Assembly: GCA_943372745.1 (NCBI GenBank)
Contig: CALRZV010000006.1
Location: 19,985 to 83,984 of the forward strand
From: Bradyrhizobium ivorense
GTDB taxonomy: Bacteria > Pseudomonadota > Alphaproteobacteria > Rhizobiales > Xanthobacteraceae
Direction of reading: 5' to 3'
Length of the DNA: 64,000 nt
The number at the start of each line of letters is the position of its first letter. Position 1 is the stretch's first letter. Shown in pieces: positions 24,872 through 44,886 of this stretch. A program made the translations under genes and the position numbers. Below the pieces are notes generated by a model, which had not been told where the DNA came from, did no database searches, and saw only the letters and a program-made list of their open reading frames with translations.

Positions 24872-26551
24872 ATGTTGCAGTGGTTCAAGGCGAACGCAGC
24901 GCGTGATGCGCTCGCCAAGGCGACGGCGTTCAACAAGTCGCAGGCGCTGGTCGAATTCAATCTCGACGGGACGGTCGTCGCCGCCAACGAGAATTACCTG
25001 GCCATCATGGGCTATTCGCTCGCCGACATTCAAGGCAAGCACCACAGCATGTTCGTTGTACCGGAGATGCGCGACAGCGCGGCCTATCACGATTTCTGGT
25101 CGGTGCTGAATCGCGGCGTGCATCAATCCGGCGAATTCAAGCGGCTCGGCAACAATGGCCGTGAAGTCTGGATCCAGGGTTCCTACACACCGGTCCTGGA
25201 CGATGCCGGCAAGCCGGTCCGGATCGTCGAGTGCTGCAGCGACATCACCGCGCAGAAAATGCGCGGGCTCGAGAACAGCGGCAAGGTCGCGGCGATCGAG
25301 CGCTCGCAGGCGATGATCGAGTTCGGTCTGGATGGCACCATCCTGTCGGCGAACCAGATCTTCCTTGATGCCATGGGCTATGCGATGGACGAGATTCGCG
25401 GCAAGCATCACAGCATCTTTGTGCTGCCGGCTGATCGCGACAGCGCGGCTTACCGCGCATTGTGGGCCGCGCTCAATCGCGGTGAGTCCCAGGCTGCCGA
25501 ATACAAGCGGATCGGCAAAAGCGGCGCCGAAGTGTGGATCCTGGCAACCTATAATCCCATCCTGGACGAGAGCGGCAAACCCATCAAGGTCATCAAATTC
25601 GCCACCGACGTCACCGAGCAGAAACTGCGCGCGGCGAATTTCTCCGGCCAGATCGAGGCAATCGGAAAATCGCAAGCGGTGATCGAGTTCAATCTCGACG
25701 GCATCGTGCTCAATGCCAATGAGAATTTCCTGTCGGTGCTGGGTTATGCGCTGTCCGAGATCCAGGGCAAGCATCACAGCATGTTCGTGCCCGTCGAGGA
25801 GCGTGGCGGCGCCGCCTATCGCGGGTTCTGGGAAAGCCTGCGACGTGGCGATTATCAATCCGCCGAATATCAGCGCATCGGCAAGAACGGCAGGCAGGTC
25901 TGGATTCAGGCGTCTTACAATCCGATCATGGATCTCAACGGGCAGCCCTACAAGGTTGTGAAATATGCGTCCGACGTCACCGCGCAGGTGATCGCACGAA
26001 TGAAAAGCGAGCGCGTGCGCGGCATGATGGAATCGGTCGCTGCCGGCGCCGAGGAACTCAGCGCATCGGTACGCGAGATTTCAGACACCATGGTGAAGTC
26101 GCGCGACACTGCGATGTCCGCGGTCGGTAAGGTCGAACTGGCCGATGGTCAGGCGCAGCGGCTCACCTCGGCGGCGCAGGCAATGAGCGGCATCGTCGAA
26201 TTGATCGGGCACATCACCGGCCAGATCAATCTGCTCGCGCTCAATGCGACGATCGAATCTGCGCGCGCCGGCGAGGCCGGTCGCGGCTTTGCGGTGGTCG
26301 CGTCGGAAGTGAAGAACCTCGCGACTCAGGCCAAGCAGGCAACCGACCGGATTTCGAGCGAGATCAGCAGCCTCAACGGTATTTCCGGTGACGTCGTCGA
26401 TGCGCTGAACGCGATTAAAACCGAGATCCAGAGCGTCAGCGAATATGTCAACGCGACCGCAGCCGCAGTCGAACAGCAAAGCGTGGTGACGAGCGAAATG
26501 TCGAACAGCATGCTGCGCGCGGCGGAAGAAGCCGCCAGTATCGGCCACTGA
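24872..26551 (+). CDS. Soluble chemoreceptor with three PAS domains and a short MCP signalling domain
   Basis: Three repeats of SQAxxEFxLDG...KHHS(M/I)F...W...[37 protein letters not shown]. No TM segment. Confidence 0.92.
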
Positions 26552-27245: not shown

Positions 27246-27463
27246 CCTCTCTCCGCATCTTGCGCGGGGAGAGGTCGCCGCGTCTTCGCGGTGGGTGAGG
27301 GGCAGGGCACGTTAGAAAGCCGGAATACCGATGTCCGGAGCGGAAAGTGTCGTGTGGCGTGAGGATTTGGGTGCGGCAGGCATTGTGCTCCGCCCCTCAT
27401 CCGACCCGGCGCCGCTGCGCTATGCCGGGCCACCTTCTCCCCGCGCAAGATGCGGGGAGAAGG
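27246..27463. repeat. Family A composite element (218 bp)
   Basis: Terminal hairpins plus GGTGAGGGG/CCCCTCATCC. Right half is nearly identical to the 41190 copy. Confidence 0.85.
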
Positions 27464-38981: not shown

Positions 38982-39136
38982 AGTGAGCTGTGCCCCGTCC
39001 GCCTGCCGCACAACCTTCGGGGTCCCGGTAAACATTTACTCGCTCTTAGTTTCTCTGCCGTAGGTTTGGGCACTCGCCTCGGGTGCGGGCTGCGCCTGGA
39101 GACGAGGTGTTGGGAGTGATAAACGGGGGGCCCAAA

Positions 39137-41182
39137 GTGGCATCGACGACGCTTGTCCGGAAGAAGCCGGGTTTCCTGAAATTGCCGACTCTCAGATTTC
39201 GCGCCAAGGTGACGCTCGGCTTCGCCGCGGTGCTGCTGATCTCCGCCATCAGCATGGTGATGGCCTATGTCGGCTTCGAACGCATCGCCAACGGCGTCGT
39301 CTCCTATCGCACCACCGTCGCGGAATCGGGCCTGGCCCGCAATATCGATCGTGAGCTGACCTCCTATCAGGCATTGGCGCGCTATTACGTGCTGACCAGC
39401 TTCGAGGCCGATGCCAAGGCGGCTAAGACGGCGGAAGTGGCTCTCAAAGATGCCATCGACCAGTCGATGAAGGCGGCGACGGATTCCGCGCGTCTCGACA
39501 AGGTCACCTGGCTGTCGCGCGAATTCACCGCTTTCACCAAGATCTTCGCTAACATCCTCACGGTGAAGAGCGAGAACGATACGATCGCCGCCAATCAGCT
39601 GTCGCGCACCAGCCTGATGTTGCGCAACAAGATCGACGATCTTGGCGATACCGCGATCATGGCCGGCCTGGCATCGGTGCAGGATCAGGTGAAGGAAATC
39701 ACCACGCAATTTATCACCGCGACTTCGCTGGTGAACACCTATATCGGCAAGGCCGAGGACAAGACATCCAACGCTGCGCAGGCGCGTATCAAGTTCCTGC
39801 AGAACCAGTATGCGACCATCTATGCCAATGATGACAAGATCAACGGCAAGCTGAAGGAGATCGTCGCTGATACCAAGATCTATGCCGATGCCTTCGTGAA
39901 GTTCGTCGAGAACACCAAGAAGGTCGACGGCCTCGCCAAGGAGATGTCGGAATCAGCCGCGGCGATCACCAAACTCTCCGGCGAGATGAAGGCCGACATG
40001 CTGTCCGAGCAGCACCGGATGGAAACCGAATCCGACAAGACGGTCACCGATACCAAGCAGCTGGTGACAATTCTCGGCATCGGTGGTTTCGTGATCGGCG
40101 CCATCCTCGCCATGCTGCTCGGACGCAGCATTTCCAAGCCGATGACCGCGATGTGCGCAGCGATGCGCAAGCTCGCTGCCGGCGATTTCGACGTGGTGCT
40201 CCCGGGCCTCGGCCGCCGCGACGAACTCGGCGACATGGCCTCTGCCGTGGAAGAGTTCAAGGTGCAGGCGGTGGCCAAGGCCGAACGCGATGCTGCTGCA
40301 CAGGAAGAATCGAACCGGGCCGCCGATCAGATGCGCCGCGGCGAATTGATCCGCTTCGCCGACCAGTTCGAATCTGCCGTCGGCTCCATCGTGTCGAGTG
40401 TCTCGGTGTCCTCGGGCCAGCTCGAAGGCGCTGCCAACACGCTGACACGCACGGCGGAGACCACCGAACAGTTGTCCGGCCAGGCCGCGGCGACGTCGGA
40501 TGAAGCCTCGTCCAACATGCAGTCGGTCGCAACGGCAACGGAGGAACTGTCGCTGTCGGTCAACGAGATCGGCCGTCAGGTGCAGAACTCCAGCCGGATC
40601 GCCGAATCTGCGGTGGATCAGGCGCGCCAGACCGATGCCCGCATCGGCGAATTGTCGCGGGCCGCCCAGCGCATCGGCGACGTCGTCGATCTGATCACTG
40701 CGATTGCCGAGCAGACCAATCTGCTGGCCCTCAACGCGACCATCGAGGCCGCGCGCGCGGGCGACGCCGGTCGCGGTTTTGCGGTGGTTGCGTCCGAAGT
40801 GAAGTCACTGGCCAGTCAGACGGCGAAGGCGACCGAGGAAATCTCGACGCAGATCGCCGGGATGCAGAGCGCGACGCAGGAGTCGGTGGCGGCGATCAAG
40901 CAGATCGGCAATACGATTGGCGAAATCTCCGGCATTGCCTCTGAGATCGCCAGCGCCGTCGAGCAACAGGGCGCCGCCACGCGCGAAATCGCGCAAAATG
41001 TCCAGCGCGTCGCCCATGGCACGCAGCAGGTCGCCGGCAACATCACCGAGGTCAATCGCGGCGCGTCGGAGACCGGCGCGGCGTCGGGGCAGGTGCTGAA
41101 TTCGGCGCAGACCTTGTCGGCGGAAAGCACGCGCCTGCGCGCCGAACTCGACCGCTTCATGGAAAACATCCGCGCGGCGTAA
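39137..41182 (+). CDS. Transmembrane methyl-accepting chemotaxis protein (large periplasmic domain, HAMP); start uncertain
   Basis: Two TM segments, HAMP (RRDELGDMA), [31 protein letters not shown]. Confidence 0.92.
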
Positions 41183-41189
41183 TGTTGAA

Positions 41190-41340
41190 CCTCTCCCCGC
41201 CTGCGGGGAGAGGTCGACTCGGCTTCGCGTCGGGTGAGGGGGCTCTCCACAGGCGCCGTCGCCAGAGGAGAGTCCCCCTCATCCGTCCCGGCGCCGCTGC
41301 GCTATGCCGTGCCACCTTCTGCCCGCCAGCGGGGAGAAGG
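41190..41340. repeat. Family A composite element (151 bp)
   Basis: CCTCTCCCCGCCTGCGGGGAGAGG...GGGTGAGGGG...CCCCTCATCC...GCGGGGAGAAGG. Confidence 0.85.
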
Positions 41341-41359
41341 CAAGCGCTTCGCTCGACCG

Positions 41360-42988
41360 CTACTCCGCAGGCACCGCCATCGGCGGTACTGCCATTTGCG
41401 GCGCGCCGTATTTCCCAGCCGCATACAGACCAGCCGCCACCACCACATAAGCGACTGCGACCCCCGGCGTGACGCCGAAGCCGACGGCTTCGCCATGCAT
41501 GAAGCCGAACCAGGTCATCACGGCGCCGGCAAATGCGAAACCTGCCGCCTTGGTGAACTCGCGGTCGATGATGAATACGCCGATGGCGCCGAGTACGAGG
41601 CCGCCGAGGATTGAGCCGCCGCCCATCACCTCCAGCCCGTGATACAACACGCCCTGTTGCGGCAGTGATGCGATCGCCGCGGTCTTGACCTCTCCCACCT
41701 TGTCCGCACCGAGCCCCGCAGCCTGCGCGGCGGTGAGCGTGGCGCCCAGCATGGTGTCGATCTGCAATTTACCCCAGGCTGCCAGATGCGGTGTGAAAGC
41801 CAGCACGATGGCGGGCGCATGTTTGAGCGGCGTGGTCTGGAACGCCTGCGCGCCGATCAGCATGCCGATGTATAAAAGGATCGGCGAGATCGCCACCACC
41901 GGCACCAGCGCCAGCAACACGGCGATGACGCCGAACCACGACAGCACCACGACCATAAGTCCGGTGGCGGCGGAATAGCCGATCCGGCCACCCATCGCCT
42001 TCCAGCCGGGATGGCCGATATAGACAGCGTTGATGAACGGGTTGCCCATCAGGCATCCGATCAGCGACACCACGCCATCGGCGGTCAACACCCGTGTGGT
42101 CGGATAGTCGTCGCCGGCGGCCTCGGCGGACTCCACATTATCCATTGCCTCGACGAGATCGTAGATGCCGAACGGTATAGCCGTCACCAGGATGATGCCG
42201 AGAAACTCGAACCCGGAGAAGACGGCGTTGAAAGCAGGCAGTGGCACGGAGAAGCCGAAATTGGCGAAGGCGTCGCCGACGCCTTTCACGCTGAGGCCGC
42301 CGATGCCGAGACCAAACAGGTTCGAGCCCCATGCGATGACCATGCCGACGGCGATGGCGATCAGGCCGGCCGGCAGGTTGCGGAAGTAAGTCACGCCGCC
42401 GAACCAGCTGAGCATGATGATAGCAAAACAGACCAGGCCGATCTGCGGCGTCATGTACATTTCGAGTGCCGGCCGCATCGAGATGAAGGTGACGGAGACG
42501 CCCGCCAATGTGCCGAGCAGCGCCGCGCGCGGCGTGATCTTGCGGATGTAAGGCGCGATGAAGCCGCCGATCATCAGGATGAAGCTCTGGAAGAAGACCC
42601 AGACGAGCCCGGCCGACCAGCCCTTCAAGGGATCGCCGGTCTTGATGGTGATCGGCAGCATTATCACGAAGGTCACGATGAACATGTGCGGGACGCTGAC
42701 GCCGGACGGCAATGCGCAGACGTCGCTACGGCCGGTCTTCTGCGCGAGGCGATAAGCGAGCCAGGCGTAGTACATGGTCGATAGACACATCATCAGACCG
42801 AGCGCCGGCAGGATGCGGCCGAACACCAGGCTGTCCGGCATCTTCAGCACGAAGCGCAGCAGGCCGGTCAGCACCAGCATGTTGACCAGAATATTGGTGC
42901 CGAAACCGAACAGCGCATTCCAGTCACCCGGTGTCCAAAGTGCCGGCTTGAAGCCGGGCGTCGTCGTCGTCCCCATGCTCGTCGTCAT
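41360..42988 (-). CDS. Multi-pass permease, NCS2/AzgA-like, uncharacterised
   Basis: 542 aa with 12 or more hydrophobic segments, [31 protein letters not shown]-coupled to the cysteine hydrolase. Confidence 0.8.
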
Positions 42989-43716
42989 CGCAAAGCTCCC
43001 GCCAGCCTGTGTGAAGTCTCCATCGCATTTTCGGAATTGCCGATGGCATCGAGCACGGCGGCGGAGTCCGCGACCCAGCCGAAGATGCCGCCCTGGGCCT
43101 TGATCATTCTCAGGCCCATCTCGTGGAATTCGGGAAAGTAGGATGCGCAGCCATCGGCGATAACGATGCAGCGATAGCCGCGGTCATTGGCCTCGCGCAC
43201 GGTGGTGTTGACGCAGACTTCCGTGGTGACGCCGCAGACGAGCAACGTGTCGATCTTGCGTGCTTCGAGGTCGCTGCCCAGCGACGTTGCGTAGAAGGCG
43301 CCCTTGCCGGGCTTGTCGATGACGATCTCGCCTTCGATGGGATAGAGTGCGGGGATGATGTCATGACCGGCCTCGCCACGGATCAGGATACGCCCCATCG
43401 GGCCGGGATCACCGATCCGCAGGCTCGGTGCGCCGCGTTGGATCTTGGCGGGTGGGGCATCGGAAAGATCGGGCAGGTGGCCTTCGCGGGTGTGGATCAC
43501 CATCATGCCGCGATGGCGCGCGGCCGTCAGCAATGCGGCGATGGGAGCTACGGCGCGAGTGAGCTGCGAGACGTCGTTGCCCAGCGTTTCGCCGAAGCCC
43601 CCCGGCTCCATGAAGTCGCGCTGCATGTCGATGATAAGCAGGGCAGTGGAGGCGAGATCGACGTCGATCGGACCGGGCTCGGCCGCGACTGTGATTTGTC
43701 CCGTAGCATCCGCCAT
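42985..43716 (-). CDS. trtA: Isochorismatase-family cysteine hydrolase, triuret hydrolase (TrtA)-type
   Basis: Asp-Lys-Cys triad (IIDMQ, DKPGK, EVC). [25 protein letters not shown] match my recollection of TrtA rather than BiuH. Confidence 0.75.
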
Positions 43717-43751
43717 GGCCATCTCCGCGCGCGTATCGCTCACGGATATCA

Positions 43752-43767
43752 AGCAAGGCGTGTGCCA
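43752..43767 (-). promoter_or_regulatory. Sigma54 (-24/-12) promoter
   Basis: Minus strand reads TGGCAC-ACGCC-TTGCT, ending 35 nt upstream of ATG 43716. Confidence 0.85.
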
Positions 43768-43893
43768 TTGTACACAACGCGGGATGTTTTAGGTCGCAAA
43801 TACAGGGCTATAAATTTCAGAGGGTTAGGCGCGGAGGCCTAAATGCTCAAATTTACGCCCGCGCCGACTTGCCTAAAACGCAACCGGCAATGC

Positions 43894-44700
43894 TCAATCC
43901 CAACCCGTGCCTGCGATCCCGGGATTGGCGTAGACGATGCCGCCATCGACCGCGAGCGTGGTGCCGACGACATAGTCCCCGGCGCGTGAGGCGAGGTAGA
44001 TCGCGGCGCCGGCTATGTCCTCGTCGGTGCCGATACGGCCGGCTGGGACTTTGCTTGCCACGTCATCCGCATGGTCGCGCGCGGCGGTGTTCATGTTGGA
44101 CTGGAACGGACCCGGCGCGATGGCGGTAACCACCACATGATCCTTGATCAGCTTGGCCGCCATTCGTCGGGTCAGATGGATCAGGCCGGATTTGCTGGCT
44201 GCATAGGAATAGGTCTCCAGCGGATTGACGAAGATGCCATCGATTGAGGCAATGTTGATCACCTTGGCCGGACGCGCCGCGGAGCCCGCCGCGCGCAGCG
44301 GCGCGGCCAGTGCCTTGGTAAGGAAGAAAGGCGCCTTGACGTTGAGCGTCATCACCTTGTCCCAGCCGCTTTCGGGAAAATCGTCGAACTCCGCCCCCCA
44401 GGCGGCGCCGGCATTGTTGACCAGGATATCGAGCTTCGCCTCACGCTTCTTGATCTCACCGGCAAGCATCTCGATGCCGGTCATGGTCGAGATATCGATC
44501 GGCAATGCAATGCATTCGCCCGCATAGGCCTCGCTCAGCTCCTGCGCCGTGGCTTCGCAGGCGGCTGCCTTTCGCGCGGTGATATAGACCTTCGCAGCAC
44601 CCTGGCTGAGAAAGCCCGCAGCGATCATCTTGCCGATGCCGCGCGAGCCGCCGGTGACCAATGCGACGCGGCCCTTGAGCGAAAACAGATCCGTGAACAT
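43894..44700 (-). CDS. SDR family oxidoreductase
   Basis: TGGSRGIG, LVNNAG, YAASK. Start reset to MFTDLF. Confidence 0.92.
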   Translation of the reverse strand: MFTDLFSLKGRVALVTGGSRGIGKMIAAGFLSQGAAKVYITARKAAACEATAQELSEAYAGECIALPIDISTMTGIEMLAGEIKKREAKLDILVNNAGAAWGAEFDDFPESGWDKVMTLNVKAPFFLTKALAAPLRAAGSAARPAKVINIASIDGIFVNPLETYSYAASKSGLIHLTRRMAAKLIKDHVVVTAIAPGPFQSNMNTAARDHADDVASKVPAGRIGTDEDIAGAAIYLASRAGDYVVGTTLAVDGGIVYANPGIAGTGWD

Positions 44701-44886
44701 GACGCTTCCCGCTTGTTCGTTGTTTGTGGTGATCGTAGCCCGGATGGCGCGCAGCGCAAATCGGAGCCGCGGCGTCTTGCTCATGACGTGCGGCCGCTCT
44801 CTCTCCGCCAGCGGATCGATGGAGGACGGCGATTGCTCTGATTCGAAGTGGGCTTGGCCCAGCGGCGGGGTTTCTCGGTCGCCAGA

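Follow-up and report, generated by a model that had tools for sequence, protein, structure and literature searches.

A sigma54-type operon pairing a TrtA-type hydrolase with a predicted UraA-fold permease, a candidate triuret importer, in Bradyrhizobium ivorense

What does a membrane protein that matches no family model do when its gene is coupled to that of a ureide-cleaving enzyme? The question is raised by a locus in a stretch of 64,000 nucleotides (nt) of Bradyrhizobium ivorense DNA (assembly GCA_943372745.1, contig CALRZV010000006.1); this whole stretch is the window in what follows, and positions are counted from its first letter. Here, a cysteine hydrolase related to the triuret hydrolase TrtA and a permease of 542 amino acids (aa) lie behind a sigma54 promoter. 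The pair probably forms a sigma54-dependent two-gene operon with which the cell scavenges the nitrogen of triuret (carbonyldiurea) or of a closely similar ureide, with the permease as the candidate importer. The unit consists of the following features, where TM denotes transmembrane helices:

42985-43722, reverse strand: trtA-type isochorismatase-like cysteine hydrolase, 245 aa from ATG 43722, TGA stop at 42987-42985
43726-43723, reverse strand: GGAG ribosome-binding site, upstream of both in-frame ATGs
41360-42988, reverse strand: 542-aa permease of predicted UraA fold (7+7 TM), candidate triuret importer from its model and its trtA linkage
43767-43752, reverse strand: sigma54 -24/-12 promoter, TGGCAC-ACGCC-TTGCT, exact consensus
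43768-43777, reverse strand: inverted repeat TTGT-N2-ACAA, TTGTGTACAA, directly abutting the -24 element
about 43785-43819, reverse strand: AT-rich tract with a conserved TGAwA block, candidate IHF or bending site, between the repeats and the promoter
43844-43898, reverse strand: three direct WWTRRGCA repeats in conserved blocks, candidate activator-binding sites

The hydrolase can open at ATG 43722 or, in the same frame, at ATG 43716, which gives 243 aa and is likely the true start, judging from the GGAG 6 nt upstream and from the alignment of homologues; a TTG start at 43752 in the list of open reading frames is set aside because it lies inside the promoter. Numbered from ATG 43722, the catalytic triad is D32, K137 and C170, aligned to D24, K129 and C162 of TrtA. 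The protein matches Pfam Isochorismatase (PF00857) with 151.7 bits. With the NCBIfam equivalog for biuret hydrolase (BiuH, NF050097) it scores 258.9 bits, below the 370-bit cut-off, and thus falls outside that family. Its top relatives in the PDB are the three entries for TrtA of Herbaspirillum sp. BH-1 (6XIX, 6XJ4 and 6XJE; Tassoulas, Elias & Wackett 2020, PMC7948467), of which 6XIX is the best match (E 6e-86, 291 bits, ungapped over 212 residues), at about 64% identity. The BiuH structures reach 218-223 bits.

The residues that separate TrtA from BiuH are F35, N41, A134, E160, Y187 and I205, considered together with the triad D24/K129/C162 and with K132, F29 and Q202 (PMC7948467). At these twelve sites the window hydrolase reads DFFNKKAECYQI in a MAFFT alignment, identical to 6XIX, and all six discriminating residues, the triad and Q202 are of the TrtA type. 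It shares with Herbaspirillum TrtA the isochorismatase-like fold, the D-K-C triad, these second-shell residues and, as described below, the clade. The BiuH enzymes of Rhizobium leguminosarum 3841 (6AZO) and Rhodococcus sp. Mel (6XJM), together with the NF050097 family, are paralogous at about 50% identity and have the triad in common, with Y, Y, S, D, T and V where the window hydrolase has F, N, A, E, Y and I; BiuH-type copies read DFYYKKSDCTQV at the signature sites. In a maximum-likelihood tree, sequences with the TrtA signature and sequences with the BiuH signature are split with 100/100 support, the window hydrolase and the characterised TrtA standing on one side. The Herbaspirillum reference sits on a long terminal branch, and its exact place within the TrtA side is uncertain. 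By its sequence the hydrolase is TrtA-type, and it is predicted to hydrolyse triuret to 1-carboxybiuret and ammonia, 1-carboxybiuret being the product of TrtA (PMC7948467).

The stop codon of the hydrolase and the start codon of the permease overlap as ATGA (42988-42985), an arrangement that provides translational coupling. The permease itself yields no Pfam match even at E up to 10, PF00860 (Xan_ur_permease) included, and no NCBIfam match; searches of PDB sequences with phmmer, and with a profile of 34 sequences, find nothing either. PF00860 is matched weakly by three of the 34 distant family members (best E 5e-7). A regular-expression search for the NAT signature [Q/E/P]-N-x-G-x4-T-[R/K/G] is negative, and TM10 carries V-Y-I-G-H-P-G-W-K, the family's own motif. 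Because sequence searches failed at every level, the permease was placed by fold comparison. The AlphaFold2 model, built on the 34-sequence alignment (pLDDT 91.5, pTM 0.88), shows some 14 helices in its core, and its short strands, placed as in TM3 and TM10 of UraA, span 95-97 and 320-322. Every top Foldseek match in the PDB is a carrier with a 7+7-TM inverted repeat (UraA, SLC26Dg, SVCT1, AZG1, prestin, BicA and Bor1), at E of about 1e-6 to 1e-4, probability 1.0, a target-normalised TM-score of at most 0.59 and 11-17% identity; UraA, SLC26Dg, SVCT1 and AZG1 match at E of about 1e-6. The predicted fold, with 14 TM in two inverted repeats and the short strands in TM3 and TM10, is that of UraA (5XLS/3QE7), Arabidopsis AZG1 (8WO7/8IRL), SVCT1, SLC26/SulP and SLC4, and the UraA fold suits planar, hydrogen-bonding substrates. 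The model thus presents the permease as a putative UraA-fold secondary carrier. By the sequence tests it would stand outside NCS2/NAT proper: unlike the NCS2/NAT and AzgA-like carriers, it has no NAT motif and no detectable similarity to PF00860 or to PDB sequences.

The permease family is sizeable, with 2,936 clusters at 50% identity when E up to 0.001 is accepted and 554 at E up to 1e-30. The segments predicted to form the substrate site (TM3, TM8 and TM10) are nearly invariant from Bradyrhizobium to Verrucomicrobia, and in them the trtA-linked clade differs from its paralogues at C91, D277/L278 and I319-N320-A321, where these have T, N/F and P-T-T. The paralogues, at 36-38% identity, lie in purine and ureide gene contexts on plasmids. 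The wider family looks like a group of purine and ureide carriers, and the trtA-linked clade like a branch specialised for the TrtA pathway. JGI names for its members are 'AGZA family xanthine/uracil permease-like MFS transporter' or adenine/guanine/hypoxanthine permease. RefSeq/PGAP (NCBI) gives the permease and its homologues the product name 'regulator', which looks like a propagated misannotation.

Individual paralogues illustrate these contexts. On E. coli APEC p1ColV5155 (locus L112, 23258-24808), a paralogue lies between DUF1116 and carbamate kinase genes. On a Pseudosulfitobacter plasmid (locus L113, 267571-269154), one is part of xdhABC-permease-guaD, a context of roseobacter plasmids. 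Plasmid pADPe of Pseudomonas sp. ADPe (locus L110, NZ_CP062123.1:25326-27300) carries a shortened paralogue of 35% identity, adjoining a nucleoside deaminase and a fragment of an AtzD-like ring-opening amidohydrolase, with an IS21-family element beside them.

The linkage of the permease to trtA holds at every scale examined. The two genes adjoin in 18 of 18 permease-bearing genomes of Tardiphaga, the genus to which the analysis assigns the host. A search with an 8-sequence alignment gave 80 orthologous loci, their best segments being 71-89% identical (78 evaluable, two not judgeable), from Nitrobacteraceae, Xanthobacteraceae, Ancylobacter, Bosea, Polyangiaceae, Verrucomicrobiota, Gammaproteobacteria and Betaproteobacteria. 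A full TrtA-signature gene stands immediately upstream of the permease in 66 of the 80; among the others are two or three trtA fragments cut by a contig edge, two copies within 1.5 kb and one downstream. Overall, about 74 of the 78 evaluable loci (~95%) show the linkage, across several phyla. All TrtA-like hydrolases of at least 180 aa at these loci have the TrtA signature, and the BiuH signature is limited to twelve other copies, all of which share about 50% identity with the window hydrolase; most of them lie just downstream of the permease in Verrucomicrobiota and Gammaproteobacteria loci. In some other phyla, true BiuH thus follows the permease. Among 401 evenly sampled Pseudomonadota genomes, with TrtA-type genes taken at 55% identity or above and permease orthologues at 49% or above, about 30 have a TrtA-type gene and ten a permease orthologue, which adjoins trtA in all ten. 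Paralogues at 30-40% identity in this sample do not adjoin trtA. Unlike nucleobase carriers, the orthologue group is tied to trtA and not to purine genes. In the plasmid collection, the R. leguminosarum pRL10-type trtA cluster gives no match to the permease. The tight linkage makes this uncharacterised carrier a good candidate for a triuret importer.

The promoter is the only match to TGGCAC-N5-TTGCW in the window, where chance predicts 0.09, and at least one appears in 8 of 100 shuffles; the 5.05-Mb host genome holds 17 matches to this strict motif, the trtA promoter included. It has GG at -24 and GC at -12 and lies 36 nt from ATG 43716, the correct distance for a start codon. The elements TGGCA[CT] and TTGC[AT] are kept, with a variable 5-nt spacer, in 18 of 18 permease-bearing Tardiphaga loci and also in about 30 further loci of Bradyrhizobium, Afipia and related, partly unclassified bacteria. 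Spacer variants among the orthologous loci include ACGCC, ACACC, GTAGC, GCTGC and GGGGC. Chance as the origin of the promoter and the gene pair is excluded mainly because both are conserved across relatives. The strict motif was not found at trtA-permease loci beyond the Tardiphaga/Bradyrhizobium/Afipia group, where the pair usually sits within larger clusters flanked by GntR. The sequence supports reading the trtA-permease unit of the window as a sigma54-type operon.

Upstream of the promoter, the WWTRRGCA repeats ATTGAGCA (43898-43891), TTTAGGCA (43877-43870) and TTTGAGCA (43851-43844) sit at -131, -110 and -84 from the -24 element. An alignment of 35 upstream regions places these blocks at conserved positions across genera, with spacing that shifts by about 11 bp, roughly one helical turn, between clades. 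The AT-rich tract might serve as an IHF site. The inverted repeat next to the -24 element is nearly invariant across the Tardiphaga, Bradyrhizobium and Afipia loci, where it reads TTGTACACAA or TTGTGTACAA; the composite of TTGT-N2-ACAA and TGGCA occurs once in the host genome, and the repeat could be an operator. The genome encodes RpoN (429 bits) and five enhancer-binding proteins, namely NtrC (741 bits), NtrX, FlbD, one unassigned response regulator and one PAS-domain protein. By elimination among these five, NtrC is most likely the activator. A generic NtrC site could not be supported, as the trtA upstream region and the other strict sigma54 promoters have no motif in common.

Much of this anatomy had been read from the letters in an earlier note, and it stands. 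The promoter is exact and conserved in relatives, the triad is intact, the ATGA overlap leads into a 542-aa permease, the AT-rich tract is present and a dispersed repeat closes the unit (41275-41326, given there as family A, 94% identical to 27393-27444). The motifs that the note named also fit the structures: GGF-x3-LGN, TTEVC, SYF and GGI for TrtA agree with the 6XIX alignment, and GGY-x3-MGY, TTDVC, GATD and GGV for BiuH with that of 6AZO. Its proposal of a TrtA-type enzyme, to be checked by homology search against TrtA and BiuH, is borne out by the scores (291 bits for 6XIX against about 220 for BiuH), the signature and the clade. The NtrC-like half-sites that it pointed to, TGCTCAAA (43844-43851) and TGCCTAAAA (43870-43878), are present within the WWTRRGCA repeats; their attribution to NtrC goes as far as the elimination just described.

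How the product of the hydrolase could be used is suggested by the rest of the host genome, which is 99.98% complete. BiuH above the cut-off was not found in it. The gene for allophanate hydrolase, atzF, is on contig C11 (788 and 840 bits), beside an operon that would supply the remaining steps:

C11:20591-30945 (L029:4592-14946): atz-type lower-pathway locus, an operon with a divergent atzF

The operon comprises a family-5 substrate-binding protein, two permeases, a fused ATPase, an atzG-like gene, atzE, an atzH-like gene and GntR. AtzE scores 747 bits (cut-off 461), the AtzH-like protein 193 bits with PF11533, and the AtzG-like protein belongs to PF13318. A sigma54 promoter, TGGCAC-AAACC-TTGCG (L029:12950-12935), lies 43 nt before the start of the substrate-binding protein gene and is kept in five of five other Tardiphaga genomes examined, which fits co-regulation of both halves of the pathway. 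The TTGTnnACAA element was not found at this promoter, so a GntR operator common to both operons is unsupported.

In the pathway of Pseudomonas sp. ADP, 1-carboxybiuret is the substrate of AtzEG. Since this compound is also the TrtA product, a BiuH-independent route is possible. Counterparts of the Pseudomonas AtzEG-AtzH-AtzF series are encoded on C11 above curated cut-offs, and the first substrate of that series is what TrtA would deliver. The differences are that no AtzD was found here, that the C11 operon adds an Opp/Dpp-type ATP-binding cassette (ABC) importer, GntR and a sigma54 promoter, and that it lies apart from trtA. Other taxa have the trtA-permease pair physically joined with biuH or with atzF/G/E/H. 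One uninterrupted row on a Terrarubrum plasmid consists of GntR, ABC, trtA, permease, atzF, atzG-like, atzE and atzH-like genes, and within 7 kb of the pair atzE/atzG/atzH occur in 19 of the 80 orthologous loci and atzF in 18.

Within one genus there are alternative trtA cluster architectures: true BiuH is present in 5 of 24 Tardiphaga genomes, and three of these (G003, G010 and G013) have trtA and lack the permease. The trtA-type gene is near true BiuH in G003 and G013 and about 3 kb from atzE in G010. Phylogenetic profiling of the genus, with trtA-permease set against atzE, is uninformative as atzE is nearly universal there.

In published trtA contexts, biuH, atzF and trtB occur with ABC cassettes and a GntR regulator (PMC7948467; PMC12625717). 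They present trtA-biuH-atzF clusters with trtB, GntR and an ABC cassette, whereas the window has trtA with a secondary permease only and a sigma54 promoter, in a genome without detected biuH. Judged from the sequences, what would be new in this operon is its control by sigma54, a secondary carrier that replaces the ABC system, and a lower pathway that is split and does without BiuH; the enzyme family is already known. Several expectations of the earlier note are adjusted by this setting. The unit is not the self-sufficient 'minimal' one that it was called, with atzG-atzE-atzH and atzF on C11 of the same genome. That biuH is absent extends to the genome, while the absence of atzF is true for the window only. 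The usual clustering of TrtA with both genes fails here and is seen for orthologous pairs in other taxa. Among the three fates offered for the product (release of biuret, use of distant genes, another ureide), the second is supported by the C11 atz genes, by a route that bypasses BiuH. The suggested co-occurrence of permease and trtA is found (about 74 of 78 loci, 10 of 10 sampled genomes). The phrase 'first dedicated secondary transporter' keeps its substance, a candidate triuret importer by linkage, and overstates 'first', given the ABC cassettes of published clusters.

The proposed mechanism builds directly on how the genes are arranged, on the signature and clade of the hydrolase, the permease fold, the cross-phylum linkage, the promoter conservation and the lower-pathway gene content; from there we infer what the substrate is, in which direction and with what coupling it is transported, which activator acts and that flux passes through AtzEG. 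When nitrogen is limiting, the -24/-12 promoter would be opened by an enhancer-binding activator, which is most likely NtrC. The permease would act as a proton-coupled, elevator-type carrier of the UraA fold and import a planar, nucleobase-like substrate, which is taken to be triuret. The TrtA-type hydrolase, through D32/K137/C170, would remove one ammonia and leave 1-carboxybiuret. In a cell without BiuH or cyanuric acid hydrolase, 1-carboxybiuret would pass to the products of the second, separate sigma54 operon on C11: AtzEG would convert it to 1,3-dicarboxyurea, AtzH would yield allophanate, and AtzF would release ammonia and CO2. All four nitrogens of triuret could in this way be recovered through TrtA, AtzEG, AtzH and AtzF.

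Several observations weigh against this account. The published trtA clusters use ABC cassettes instead of this permease (PMC7948467; PMC12625717), and the Opp/Dpp-type ABC importer of the C11 atz operon could itself be the real triuret importer. About two thirds of the TrtA-bearing genomes in the even sample have no permease, and four orthologous permease loci (L066, L079, L086 and L093) have no adjacent trtA. AtzE is nearly universal in Tardiphaga with or without the trtA-permease pair. AtzD/TrzD was not found in the host genome in a search whose controls were also silent, so that this absence is not proven. The WWTRRGCA repeats are not found upstream of any of the genome's other 16 strict sigma54 motifs. 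Finally, an identity of about 64% to the assayed TrtA leaves room for a related natural ureide.

The last point leads to a reading in which the architecture is the same and the substrate differs: it would be another natural acyl-ureide, for instance formylurea, an oxalurate-like compound or a product formed when urate or allantoin is oxidised, with triuret as a model substrate. Besides the modest identity, TrtA uses formylurea weakly (PMC7948467), the AtzH-like neighbour on a related plasmid is annotated HpxZ, 'oxalurate catabolism protein', and permease paralogues stand within purine and ureide catabolic clusters. However, the six specificity-linked residues and Q202 are identical to those of the ultraspecific TrtA, the hydrolase falls in the TrtA clade with 100/100 support, and the partner genes biuH, atzF and atzEGH encode exactly the consumers of the TrtA product. 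A different ureide is thus unlikely, though it deserves to be kept in mind.

The permease could also be an ordinary purine or nucleobase permease (AzgA/COG2252-like) that is co-located only, or a carrier of biuret or urea. The JGI names, the weak PF00860 matches in 3 of 34 distant members and the 36% paralogue within xdhABC-permease-guaD lean this way, and in trtA-permease-biuH loci biuret could be served as well. This is set against orthologues that adjoin trtA in all ten genomes of the sample that have one and at about 95% of the loci from several phyla, translational coupling, clade-specific residues in the predicted binding-site segments that paralogues do not have, and a protein with neither a Pfam match nor the NAT signature; biuret import, moreover, would be pointless because the host genome has no BiuH. 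We consider such a role distinctly improbable. A function as regulator or sensor (transceptor) that signals ureide availability is suggested by the NCBI/RefSeq product name 'regulator'; it is very hard to credit for a protein whose model shows all 14 helices of a UraA-fold carrier and lacks any domain for signalling or DNA binding, and the Pfam and NCBIfam searches give the name no family support. A triuret-scavenging operon stays the favoured interpretation of the locus.

The unit is bordered by the following features:

41185-41359, no strand assigned: dispersed REP-like palindromic repeats that form a composite between the permease gene and the chemoreceptor gene converging on it
39083-41182, convergent with the permease: chemoreceptor gene
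43894-44784, upstream of trtA: short-chain dehydrogenase gene

Within the composite, 41275-41326 is the copy assigned to family D3. Searched with blastn, the modules of the composite return 64 hits spread over 30 contigs, and about 30 copies of the hairpin module CCTCTCCCCGCCTGCGGGGAGAGG are present. The composite is likely a terminator or an mRNA-end structure. A 35-nt match to the hairpin module, 94% identical, lies at C11:24273-24307 within the fused ABC ATPase gene (L029:7325-9157), where it appears to be translated in frame in the inter-domain linker (SPRLRGEVDTAKRSEAVAGEGESPRASE). On the other side, the stop codon of the dehydrogenase gene is overlapped by the first WWTRRGCA repeat (43898-43891). 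Membership of this gene in the unit is rejected, since it adjoins the pair in only some Tardiphaga relatives. Elsewhere in the window, 24935-25788 holds three copies of a 122-nt unit at an exact spacing of 366 nt and 70-77% identity, probably a repeated protein domain.

Triuret is a low-solubility impurity of urea fertiliser and a product of urate oxidation. Its hydrolase was discovered only in 2020 (PMC7948467), and the searchable literature yields no description of a triuret transporter or of triuret linked to such a permease. A more ambitious and tentative proposal joins the parts, and we hold it to be somewhat more apt to fail than to succeed as a whole: the 542-aa protein would found a transporter family outside the reach of current profile libraries, the trtA-linked clade of which would be the first carrier specific for linear oligo-ureides (triuret); in Tardiphaga and Bradyrhizobium, a BiuH-independent TrtA-AtzEG-AtzH-AtzF route that mineralises triuret nitrogen would be split over two sigma54 operons; and triuret, not cyanuric acid, would be the natural feedstock of the widespread atzGEH clusters that lack atzD.

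In conclusion, a carrier that travels with trtA across phyla offers a concrete candidate gene for triuret uptake, and it belongs to a sizeable family of predicted transporters that neither Pfam nor NCBIfam models and that RefSeq lists under the mistaken name 'regulator'. If the split between TrtA and AtzEGH/AtzF is true, it would suggest a role for atzGEH clusters in genomes without cyanuric acid hydrolase, and plant-associated Nitrobacteraceae could use triuret without a biuret hydrolase; both points bear on the annotation of soil genomes and on ideas for slow-release nitrogen fertilisers.

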